From positions 1 to 31,930 of IMG/VR virus record IMGVR_UViG_2565956721_000004: 31,930 bases of DNA, one strand, 5' to 3'. The notes beneath the pieces were generated by a model. The model saw only the letters and a program-made list of their open reading frames with translations, had not been told where the DNA came from and searched no databases. How positions within the stretch are numbered: position 1 is the first letter of the stretch; the number at the start of each line of letters is the position of its first letter. Shown here one piece after another: positions 1 to 11,383 of this stretch. The position numbers and the translations under genes were made by a program. The DNA comes from a virus (lineage: Duplodnaviria; Heunggongvirae; Uroviricota; Caudoviricetes).

Positions 1-169
1 TATCGCGTCCTCAACAATGAATTTTGTGATGCGGTGCCTGGTGCCTCCAGGTGACGTTAACCAGTTAACAATTAACGCCGGATACAGAGAATCCACCCAT
101 AACACTGTTTTTGGTTTTAACTGTTCCGCGTGCGCTGAGCCGCATTCACCGCATCACAAAATTCACTTT

Positions 170-228
170 AAAAAGGGCGGCAGAGCAGTCACGGAGTAGA
201 ACTGATACCGCCAAAAGTCACCAGAAAA
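170..228 (-). ncRNA. dicF: DicF-like small RNA (cell-division inhibitor sRNA of Qin-type prophages)
   Basis: Reverse complement of 175-227 reads TTTCTGGTGACTTTTGGCGGTATCAGTTCTACTCCGTGACTGCTCTGCCGCCC followed by a U-run (170-174). This is near-identical to the E. coli DicF sRNA as I recall it, and it lies directly downstream of the ydfC-like gene as in Qin. Confidence 0.75.
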
Positions 229-567
229 TTGATAACAGAGGGCGTTGCAGCGGAGTTGTCACTTAAGCGTATGGTCAACCTGACAACCCGGTGTCCTCAA
301 CGGGGAAGGAATAACCCCGCCATACTTACCGCCGCGCCATTTCGCGGAGTGCCACAACCGGAAGCGCACGGTCGACGAAAATTTAACGACAGGCTATCTG
401 TGAACCAGCTACCTCGCCGTGCGCTTTCGCGTTATGGTCTGACTTTTCAGGGAAATATCCTTTCAGTAAACTGTCAGTGCCGGATGCTCACCCGTGTCCG
501 GCGCACGCACTCCACCTCACCCGTGGAGAACTCCTTAATTACCAACCTTAGCTTCGTTGGTTAGCTA

Positions 568-7207: not shown

Positions 7208-7484
7208 GTCTTTGTACGACCATGCGGGCCTTATTGTCTTGCTATTGCTCTTATGGTTCGCCTTTCTGATTGATTTCATATTGGCGAGGTGACGGGAGTT
7301 AAGTAGAATGGCTGCGGGTGCTTGAGGCTATCTGTCTCAGGCATGAACACCAAAGGCAGATAGAGAAAAGCCCCAGTTAACATTACGCGTCCTGCAAGAC
7401 GCTTAACATTAATCTGAGGCTCAATCTATGAACGGCAAATCTAGGTTAGCCTCTTACGTGCCGAAAGGCAAGGAGAAGCAGGCT

Positions 7485-7640
7485 ATGAAGCAGCAAAAGG
7501 CGATGTTAATCGCCCTGATCGTCATCTGTTTAACCGTCATTGTGACGGCACTGGTAACGAGGAAAGACCTCTGCGAGGTACGAATCCGAACCGGCCAGAC
7601 GGAGGTCGCTGTCTTCACAGCTTACGAACCTGAGGAGTAA
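7485..7640 (+). CDS. hokD: Hok/Gef-family type I toxin (HokD/RelF-like), with overlapping upstream mok-like frame starting 7428
   Basis: 51 aa MKQQKAMLIALIVICLTVIVTALVTRKDLCEVRIRTGQTEVAVFTAYEPEE: single transmembrane helix plus conserved Hok C-terminal motif; matches HokD as I recall it. Confidence 0.8.
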   Translation: MKQQKAMLIALIVICLTVIVTALVTRKDLCEVRIRTGQTEVAVFTAYEPEE

Positions 7641-11073: not shown

Positions 11074-11149
11074 GGCCCTTTAGCTCAGTGGTGAGAGCGA
11101 GCGACTCATAATCGCCAGGTCGCTGGTTCAAATCCAGCAAGGGCCACCA
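11074..11149 (+). tRNA. tRNA-Ile2 (anticodon CAU, ileX-like; formally could decode Met)
   Basis: Cloverleaf folded by hand: acceptor GGCCCTT/AAGGGCC, anticodon loop CTCATAA, T-loop TTCAAAT, 3' CCA; close to E. coli ileX as recalled. Confidence 0.8.
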
Positions 11150-11150
11150 A

Positions 11151-11227
11151 CCGCCACTAGCTCATCAGGAAAGAGCGTCAACCCTTTAAGTTGAGTGTGC
11201 GAGGTTCGAGTCCCCGGTGGCGGTCCA
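11151..11227 (+). tRNA. Atypical tRNA-like gene, anticodon UUU (Lys) with C at position 33 and 5'-CC start
   Basis: Hand fold: acceptor CCGCCAC/GTGGCGG, U8, D-loop with GG, anticodon stem TCAAC/GTTGA with loop CCTTTAA, T-loop TTCGAGT (one A-C mismatch in T-stem), CCA end. It is only 1-2 nt from its neighbours. Confidence 0.5.
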
Positions 11228-11229
11228 GT

Positions 11230-11305
<76 letters not shown>

Positions 11306-11308
11306 TAT

Positions 11309-11383
<75 letters not shown>

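Follow-up and report, generated by a model that had tools for sequence, protein, structure and literature searches.

The inverted repeat between dicF and dicB is the closing helix of a conserved pseudoknotted prophage RNA, related to STnc100, and a probable RNase III stalk

The DNA analysed here, a stretch of 31,930 nt hereafter called the window, opens in a Qin-type lambdoid prophage, within its early-left operon. The small RNA DicF lies at 175-226 on the minus strand (Rfam RF00039, 71.5 bits), and upstream of it on the same strand are a YdfC-like ORF, a DUF1391 (YdfA-like) ORF and a repressor-like ORF. Positions 1-240 are 97.9% identical to Qin of E. coli K-12, and in MG1655, where dicF occupies 1649382-1649434 and dicB 1649609-1649797, the window position w of a genome position g is given by w = 1649609 - g. 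The RNA element that is the subject of this study begins directly after the U-run of DicF (170-174) and lies within the 174-nt spacer between dicF and dicB, inside which the window itself starts. A preliminary description of this DNA had located the element at the place where dicB is expected, which proved to be wrong: in MG1655 and in the K-12 derivative DH1, the counterpart of window position 1 is the base directly before the dicB ATG, and dicB is therefore to be found just beyond the left edge of the window rather than being replaced by the element. Full-length homologues read ...GTTGAGGACGCGATAATG at the dicB leader. The fallback offered there, namely that the segment is the diverged 5' end of dicB, has to be given up as well, since dicB starts immediately left of the window and the same module also precedes the unrelated gene kilR.

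Further features of the window may be recorded here. The gap that separates the first early-left ORF from the repressor-like gene (minus strand, 1368-1829) holds, at 1288-1324, a perfect hairpin or palindrome of 16 bp (TACCTATGGGTATTTACTTTTTGAATACCCATAGGTA), picked up by a terminator scan only, which might act as a terminator or as a pair of operators. The presence of a hok/sok-type module is implied by a sok antitoxin RNA (110 bits), and four tRNA genes form a cluster; these features, at 7316-7490 and 11074-11380, are both typical of the lambdoid-prophage region downstream of Q.

The features of the element and its immediate surroundings are as follows.

1-15, minus strand: dicB leader, with the Shine-Dalgarno sequence GAGGA at 8-12; the dicB ATG is off the window, immediately past position 1.
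16-36, minus strand: 3' strand of helix P1, CACCGCAUCACAAAAUUCAUU, with the left repeat arm (18-36) inside it; 21 contiguous pairs, with covariation.
37-51, minus strand: P5 hairpin, CCUGG-AGGCA-CCAGG; no other motif of the family is as strongly conserved.
53-79, minus strand: P4 hairpin, in which 71-79 pair with 53-61 around a loop at 62-70; helix 4 in the covariation test.
80-127, minus strand: P3, in which 125-127 pair with 80-82, enclosing the 5' strand of the pseudoknot and a hypervariable insert.
128-143, minus strand: P2 hairpin in a variant form, GCGGC-UCAGC-GCACGC (RNAalifold columns 45-49 / 55-60).
147-167, minus strand: 5' strand of helix P1, AGUGAAUUUUGUGAUGCGGUG, with the right repeat arm (147-165) inside it; 21 contiguous pairs, with covariation (P1 forms helices 1 and 2 in the covariation test).
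175-227, minus strand: DicF sRNA, 53 nt, with its intrinsic terminator hairpin (RF00039; MG1655 dicF 1649382-1649434 corresponds to window 227-175).

The 19-nt inverted repeat is exact, with TGAATTTTGTGATGCGGTG at 18-36, its reverse complement at 147-165 and 110 nt between the arms. When the 31.9-kb window was searched for the 19-mer with up to three mismatches, only the two arm sites were recovered, and shuffled sequences lead one to expect 0.00 matches. The repeat is thus real and not due to chance, and as a long helix it closes an RNA domain that is conserved and contains a pseudoknot. In the minus-strand RNA, which has the sense of dicB, one G.U and one A-U pair lengthen the helix to 21 bp (16-36 / 147-167); on the plus strand the first of these extra pairs is an A x C mismatch. 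The smaller motifs noticed earlier within the repeat were recovered at their places and find their explanation in the fold: the small hairpin CCTGG-TGCCT-CCAGG at 37-51 is P5, and the 'tandem palindrome' GTTAACCAGTTAAC at 56-69 is made up of the P4 loop and the P4 3' strand.

The minus-strand RNA folds with -65.8 kcal/mol (z = -6.5), with the long helix closing several hairpins, and this helix persists when the DicF or coding flanks are included, in the window as well as in Qin and Rac of K-12. Refolding of the minus-strand transcript, proposed at the outset as a check, likewise kept the long helix, with z about -6. The element is an RNA of ~150 nt with five helices (P1-P5) and a pseudoknot, P1 closing a core of ~110 nt. 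The conserved junction AAU (144-146) precedes P2, a stem that hardly varies and hence receives weak support from covariation. P3 contains the pseudoknot 5' strand CAGUUAA at 117-123, which pairs with UUAACUG (62-68) of the P4 loop, and an insert (83-116) whose length and sequence differ in every lineage.

To assess conservation of this fold, 21 embedded homologues were aligned and a model consisting of P1, P4, P5 and the pseudoknot was scored. In this alignment 95.9% of the cells are paired, as compared with 30-45% when the partners are slid against each other, and 14 pairs have changed on both sides, as compared with 3.0 +/- 1.3 in shuffles, none of 500 of which reached the observed value. 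Six of the nine pairs of P4 show such both-side changes, helix 3 of the same test being the pseudoknot. Independently, RNAalifold returned P1, the P2 hairpin, a 3-bp P3 around the hypervariable insert, P4 and P5. The changes themselves are compensatory. In the lower part of P1, pairing is kept through U-A to C-G and A-U to G-C replacements in the Pseudescherichia copy and in copy L088, and P1 of K-12 contains two adjacent G.U pairs. In P3, an A-U to C-G change is found in five sequences (column pair 63/125, AU:12, CG:5; column pair 62/126, GC:17, AU:2), P4 changes from GCGUUAA/UUAACGU to GACUGUAA/UUGCAGUC in Rac, and P5 from CCUGG/CCAGG to CCGGG/CCCGG among homologues. Given that the alignment holds 78 G.U cells and that pairing falls to 88.1% when the opposite strand is considered, the RNA acts in the sense of dicB. 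Of the readings first put forward for this repeat, that of a structured RNA element on the 3' side of the dicF transcript was therefore the right one, as the z-score of -6.5 and the helices kept by compensatory changes attest, and the two observations named in advance as speaking against it, a repeat unique to this locus and a structure lacking conservation, did not materialise: the repeat occurs elsewhere and the structure is conserved in its homologues.

Comparison by BLAST with phages and complete E. coli genomes delimits window 16-180 as a discrete block. At 80-91% identity and among unrelated flanks, the module recurs in Stx phages and in prophages of the Rac type, where 20 nt separate it from kilR downstream. 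In Rac of MG1655 it fills the gap between kilR and the annotated sRNA KilS (1418405-1418502; Bar et al. 2021, PMC8175672), which ends at the U-run where the module starts. Further copies precede a gene for a Rha-family regulator, ORFs of 93 and 94 aa and, in the tRNA region of a phage-plasmid, a gene for a hydrophobic peptide of 42 aa. Window 1-240 has matches in 4,642 of 5,426 complete E. coli genomes, and at least 80% of this block of dicF plus spacer is matched in at least 4,029 of them, with a median of two places per genome. Among the matches listed, almost all have no annotated feature under the module, and the spacer is blank in RefSeq. A scan of contigs with a pattern of the 3' block returned mostly Escherichia, Shigella and Pseudescherichia, together with chance matches in unrelated phyla.

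Several observations on individual copies accompany these results. The 3' half of KilS matches the Rfam DicF model with 39.1 bits (E 2.7e-5; L040 405-502, equal to MG1655 1418405-1418502), below the gathering score of 48, and sequences at the KilS-equivalent place of Rac-type phages reach 36-41 bits against the same model, so that KilS looks like a diverged DicF homologue in the same position before the stalk. In the phage-plasmid pEP91B-2 (L010 1328-1459) tRNA genes flank an embedded copy whose P1 is short, and the gene for the 42-aa peptide follows it directly; the peptide is hydrophobic, C-terminally basic and reminiscent of a small membrane toxin, a likeness that would be in keeping with toxic small genes as a recurrent theme downstream of the module. 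Copies of 90-98% identity are also found in records of phages with hosts outside the Enterobacteriaceae, namely MT713136.1 (Aeromonas phage AP1, 249906-250142) and PP818812.1 (an Actinobacillus phage), and the location of the former at the very end of its record suggests contamination or a chimeric assembly. The annotations deposited with the phage records LR597641.1 (L001 2312-2596, 2611-2766), ON470583.1 and others include a DicB of 94 aa that extends across the 3' half of the element, as well as hypothetical proteins across the element and DicF; these calls are probably ORF-calling artefacts over a structured RNA.

Judged by sequence and layout, the core is a relative of the prophage RNA family STnc100/PasD, embedded between the DicF terminator and the ribosome-binding site of dicB. 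A permissive search with Rfam RF02076 (STnc100) matched window 23-163 on the minus strand with 37.4 bits, below the gathering score of 47 (E = 7e-7 over 300 nt and 7.5e-5 over the whole window). The match spans model positions 21-154 of 206 with the same helix layout, and ten other embedded copies score 31-44 bits against this model; embedded copies, falling below the gathering score, are thus missed by annotation pipelines. With STnc100, PasD1/PasD2 and EcOnc27 the element shares a P1 ending in GGUG/CACC, the AAU junction and the position of the P2 hairpin, as well as the P4 hairpin, the near-invariant UCACCNGGAGGCACCNGGCACC with the P5 hairpin and the setting in lambdoid prophages. Accordingly, the family motif GGUGAAU ... 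UCACCNGGAGGCACCNGGCACC is present together with P1, P2, P4 and P5, the P2 stretch being aligned by Rfam to that of STnc100 with two non-standard pairs. A scan of viral contigs with the shared core TCACCNGGAGGCACCNGGCACC yielded 89 unique elements. The variable middle pair of P5, both bases of which were left free (N) in the search pattern, is complementary in all 89 (G-C 69, U-A 20), positions 4-7 of P1 covary among them (UA/CG/UG/AU etc.), and the pseudoknot covaries too, occurring as CCAGUC/GACUGG, AUCAGCA/UGCUGAU, CUGGUGU/ACACCGG, GCUAG/CUAGC and ACUGGAUA/UAUCCAGU, among others. For the STnc100 family, a pseudoknot is not described in the literature found and is absent from the aligned Rfam consensus structure line.

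The element nevertheless differs from the free-standing members of the family. A typical free-standing STnc100 follows directly on a TTGACA-17-TAAATT promoter; its P1 measures 6-9 bp, and on its 3' side a linker of 30-45 nt leads to an intrinsic terminator. Such copies lie between the antiterminator gene Q and the holin and lysozyme genes (Pfam), which makes them the leader of the late transcript. The embedded element, in contrast, has no promoter of its own and lacks the 3' linker and terminator (model 155-206), the match stopping at model 154 to be followed by the Shine-Dalgarno sequence of dicB, with an sRNA terminator upstream instead; its P2 has a different sequence and its P1 is longer (21-25 versus 6-9 bp). 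In embedded copies P1 consists of 21 bp (dicB type) or of 10 bp, a bulged A and about 12 bp (kilR type), and the median energy of the arm duplex is -32 kcal/mol, versus -15 kcal/mol in free-standing ones, although contiguous pairing in P1 is limited to about 9 pairs in two embedded copies, L053b and that of the phage-plasmid. The settings differ as well, as the element, in an early-left operon, is preceded by an sRNA terminator and followed by the gene of a division inhibitor, whereas the family is found downstream of stx2 or with Q on one side and the lysis genes on the other (PMC12370729). A second STnc100-like copy was found nowhere in the 31.9-kb window. Other viral contigs carry two or three clustered STnc100-like elements in the late region (L048, with three within about 1 kb; L054, L073, L094 and L114, with two copies 484 nt apart; L103 and L120), and the variable insert and the pseudoknot sequence differ between clustered copies. 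Salmonella and pathogenic E. coli carry STnc100, PasD and EcOnc27 on prophages as sRNAs associated with Hfq. For PasD and STnc100 relatives, expression, dependence on Hfq and a large number of RIL-seq partners are documented (PMC8550237; preprint 10.64898/2026.05.13.724894), and Hfq association and pairing in trans are known for PasD, EcOnc27 and some STnc100 copies only (PMC8550237, PMC12711010). The sources reached on STnc100, PasD and EcOnc27 do not mention leaders of dicB or kilR.

For the K-12 locus, which is 98% identical, PMC5069750 and PMC9438474, both citing Faubladier et al. [quoted passage not shown] The 53-nt end corresponds to window position 175, and 19 nt further lies about position 156, that is, nucleotide 12 of the 21-nt P1 5' strand and hence mid-helix, a position derived from the cited lengths alone (72 versus 53 nt) that could be off by a few nt. 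About 22 bp of dsRNA fit into RNase III, which cleaves the two strands at staggered positions (PMC6212723), so that the perfect 21-bp P1 would be a natural substrate; the expected helix length of about two turns (~22 bp) is matched by the 21 contiguous pairs of the element and, in copies of the kilR type, by 10 + 12 pairs with one bulge. From these positions we infer that P1 is probably the RNase III site reported for dicBF in 1990.

P1 would be cut near 156/155 on its 5' strand and, by the rule of 2-nt 3' overhangs (PMC6212723), near 26/25 on the partner strand. Between these putative cuts lie the pairs G157-C26 and U156-A27, one of them G-C, as is preferred by the in vivo rule of the same study. 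Such a double cut would leave read-through DicF with a defined 3' end and a 19-nt tail, and would detach the dicB mRNA with an unstructured leader of ~25 nt and a 5' monophosphate. It would also release a core RNA of ~130 nt (155-26) whose remaining P1, at 9 bp, would have the length seen in free-standing STnc100. The ends that free-standing copies obtain from a promoter and a terminator might thus be provided, in embedded copies, by a stalk of RNase III length. Taken together, we consider it probable that P1 is an RNase III processing stalk that separates DicF from the dicB mRNA and would release an STnc100-like core.

The rnc-dependent coverage site 1649470 of Gordon et al. 2017 (PMC5371410, Table S1), which corresponds to window position 139, inside the element, lends weak additional support, with 26 reads versus 0. 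The method behind it has a low resolution, merging sites less than 400 bp apart, and the site is one of many with comparably low counts; for Rac, the entry 1418510 maps outside the element, 5' of kilS. Ragunathan et al. 2023 describe the upstream RNase III site only, at the 5' end of a 190-nt DicF species, and do not mention a downstream one. Upstream of DicF, the minus-strand RNA contains a 13-nt inverted repeat (92% complementary; 359-371 / 417-429), and as the 5' end of the 190-nt species would fall at about window position 364, in the 3' arm of this repeat, DicF appears to be bracketed by two RNase III helices.

The long helix could alternatively serve, uncut, as a folding clamp or a stabiliser of the mRNA. 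More generally, the element might be a purely cis-acting leader which, as a clamp, a 5' stabiliser or a standby platform for ribosomes, adjusts how the mRNA of dicB or kilR is translated or decays, with cleavage beside the point. Such a role would suit the toxic genes downstream, which need tight control, and the following gene always has its Shine-Dalgarno sequence 4-25 nt from the 3' end of P1; the Shine-Dalgarno sequence and the AUG are, however, unpaired in centroid folds. P5 contains a conserved GGAGG, and in copies of the dicB type the U-tail of the terminator can weakly pair with GAGG of the Shine-Dalgarno sequence over a few pairs, yet the same core is found in free-standing, terminator-ended genes with no start codon adjacent. 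In addition, a P1 of 21-25 bp exceeds what folding needs, while it fits both the substrate size of RNase III and the 72-nt DicF end as cited from the 1990 work. We regard a leader acting in cis alone as unlikely.

Another explanation, compatible with the processing stalk, holds that the excised core is the precursor of a trans-acting regulator like STnc100, PasD or EcOnc27 and that its place next to dicB is incidental. The homology of the core to STnc100, the expression and Hfq dependence of the PasD and STnc100 relatives mentioned above and the 9-bp P1 of the putative product, which resembles that of free-standing copies, all agree with it. Embedded copies, however, are without the 3' linker and terminator, the very region that, as an A-rich linker with a U-tail, would be expected to serve Hfq binding and seed pairing in free-standing copies, and a stable RNA of ~130 nt from the spacer is not reported in the literature reached, so that this explanation seems to us rather doubtful.

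It is considerably less probable still that the core is a sensor RNA, riboswitch-like or protein-binding, which binds a ligand or factor and thereby gates read-through or translation. The layout does resemble that of an aptamer, with P1 closing a multi-way junction, a covarying pseudoknot and a terminator or ribosome-binding site directly after it, and the junction and loop bases AAU, UCA and AGGCA are invariant. On the other hand, no consistent alternative pairing of the P1 3' strand with the downstream terminators was found, these terminators differing by subtype; the gene context, with Q and lysis genes or division inhibitors as neighbours, gives no hint of a ligand, and Rfam classes STnc100 as an sRNA.

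More specific candidates were also tried and rejected. Sequestration of the Shine-Dalgarno sequence by P1 is at odds with its unpaired state in centroid folds, and a riboswitch-style exchange between P2 and the terminator is seen in the Stx-phage subtype only, where the terminator resembles P2, and not in the other subtypes. An antisense RNA or type I toxin-antitoxin arrangement would have to rely on one weak promoter-like site on the plus strand, at chance level, and a search for a promoter of the element's own found no promoter-like site above chance.

A function at the level of DNA, as a miniature inverted-repeat transposon, a recombination site or a palindromic protein-binding site, is highly improbable. 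Options of this kind had been raised in the preliminary description on account of the perfect 19-bp terminal repeat, and the block 16-180 is indeed a discrete mosaic module among otherwise unrelated flanks. The repeats, however, are not accompanied by a flanking direct repeat (CAACAA versus CTTTAA) that would mark a target-site duplication, and the module is present once in the window and once per prophage, at a constant syntenic position across genomes. What has been conserved is the pairing and not the palindromic sequence: the arms diverge between lineages yet stay complementary, with G.U pairs and a bulge, which at the level of DNA would count as mismatches, and the conserved bases are the unpaired ones.

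A protein-coding origin, be it as an N-terminal extension of DicB as annotated in phage mEp460_ev081 or as the 60-codon plus-strand ORF 17-199, can for practical purposes be dismissed, for although a GTG at 98-96 starts an open frame that runs up to dicB and a 94-aa DicB in one phage record and hypothetical proteins in others have been called across the region, DicB has 62 aa in RefSeq and K-12, indels among homologues are not multiples of three, the module precedes kilR at a different spacing, the plus-strand ORF is stopped after 12 codons in copies of the Rac type, and there is no Pfam match and a pattern of substitutions that reflects compensatory pairing rather than codons. The plus-strand ORF 17-199 and a minus-strand ORF at 65-145 were accordingly discarded, neither being conserved nor matching Pfam, and the initial impression that the element holds no convincing ORF is borne out by the lack of any ORF conserved across homologues.

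Some of what is brought together here was known, as RNase III processing downstream of DicF has been on record since 1990, and STnc100 is an Rfam family. What appears to be undescribed in the sources reached is that the processing helix is P1 of a fold of the STnc100/PasD class, that this class of fold contains a covarying pseudoknot, and that an embedded, terminator-less subclass with a long stalk precedes dicB, kilR and other small genes, in K-12 as well as elsewhere. The loci concerned, dicF-dicB in Qin and kilS-kilR in Rac, are classic and much-studied loci of E. coli K-12. A processing stalk would provide a structural explanation for the 72-nt DicF species, would suggest a way in which an sRNA and a toxic division inhibitor encoded on the same transcript become uncoupled, and would link two classes of prophage RNA that were formerly treated apart. 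In addition, the family gains a pseudoknot and an embedded subclass that the Rfam model misses, and spurious ORF calls such as the 94-aa DicB and several hypothetical proteins find an explanation in a structured RNA. As a bolder and, in our estimate, not very likely extension, we speculate that the STnc100/PasD core is functional in itself, as a sensor, a protein-binding or a trans-acting RNA, which heads late transcripts in one setting and sits in an RNase III stalk of the early-left operon in the other, such that derepression would release an sRNA (DicF or KilS), a core RNA and the mRNA of a division inhibitor together. If true, this would make the core a widespread and unrecognised RNA player in the control between prophage and host, even in E. 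coli K-12.

Among known systems, the dicBF processing of Faubladier, Cam and Bouche (1990) concerns the same locus, with the reported end falling at position 12 of the 21-nt P1 5' strand; the portions of that literature reached give species lengths only, and in them the helix, its dicB-side arm, the enclosed fold and the module upstream of kilR are not described. A second point of reference is the put RNA of phage HK022, which has about 70 nt and two stem-loops arranged in a V shape with a short triplex, and is located upstream of the terminators it suppresses (PMC9378689). Like put, which acts from the nascent transcript, the element is a structured RNA in the early operon of N-less lambdoid phages; unlike the element, which comprises ~150 nt with a five-helix junction and a pseudoknot and is located downstream of the DicF terminator, put has neither a closing helix nor a pseudoknot. 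A put-like antiterminator was hence rejected on grounds of architecture.

A further parallel is with the stalks by which RNase III excises stable RNAs or separates cistrons, such as the stems of 16S and 23S rRNA, the sites in the early mRNA of phage T7 and the N-leader of lambda. As in these stalks, segments that are complementary but far apart pair into a helix of about two turns, on which a structured RNA sits within a longer transcript, and a double cut would free the enclosed RNA and separate the flanking parts. In contrast to the rRNA, T7 and lambda stalks, cleavage at the element is documented only indirectly, and the RNA enclosed here is a 110-nt prophage RNA.
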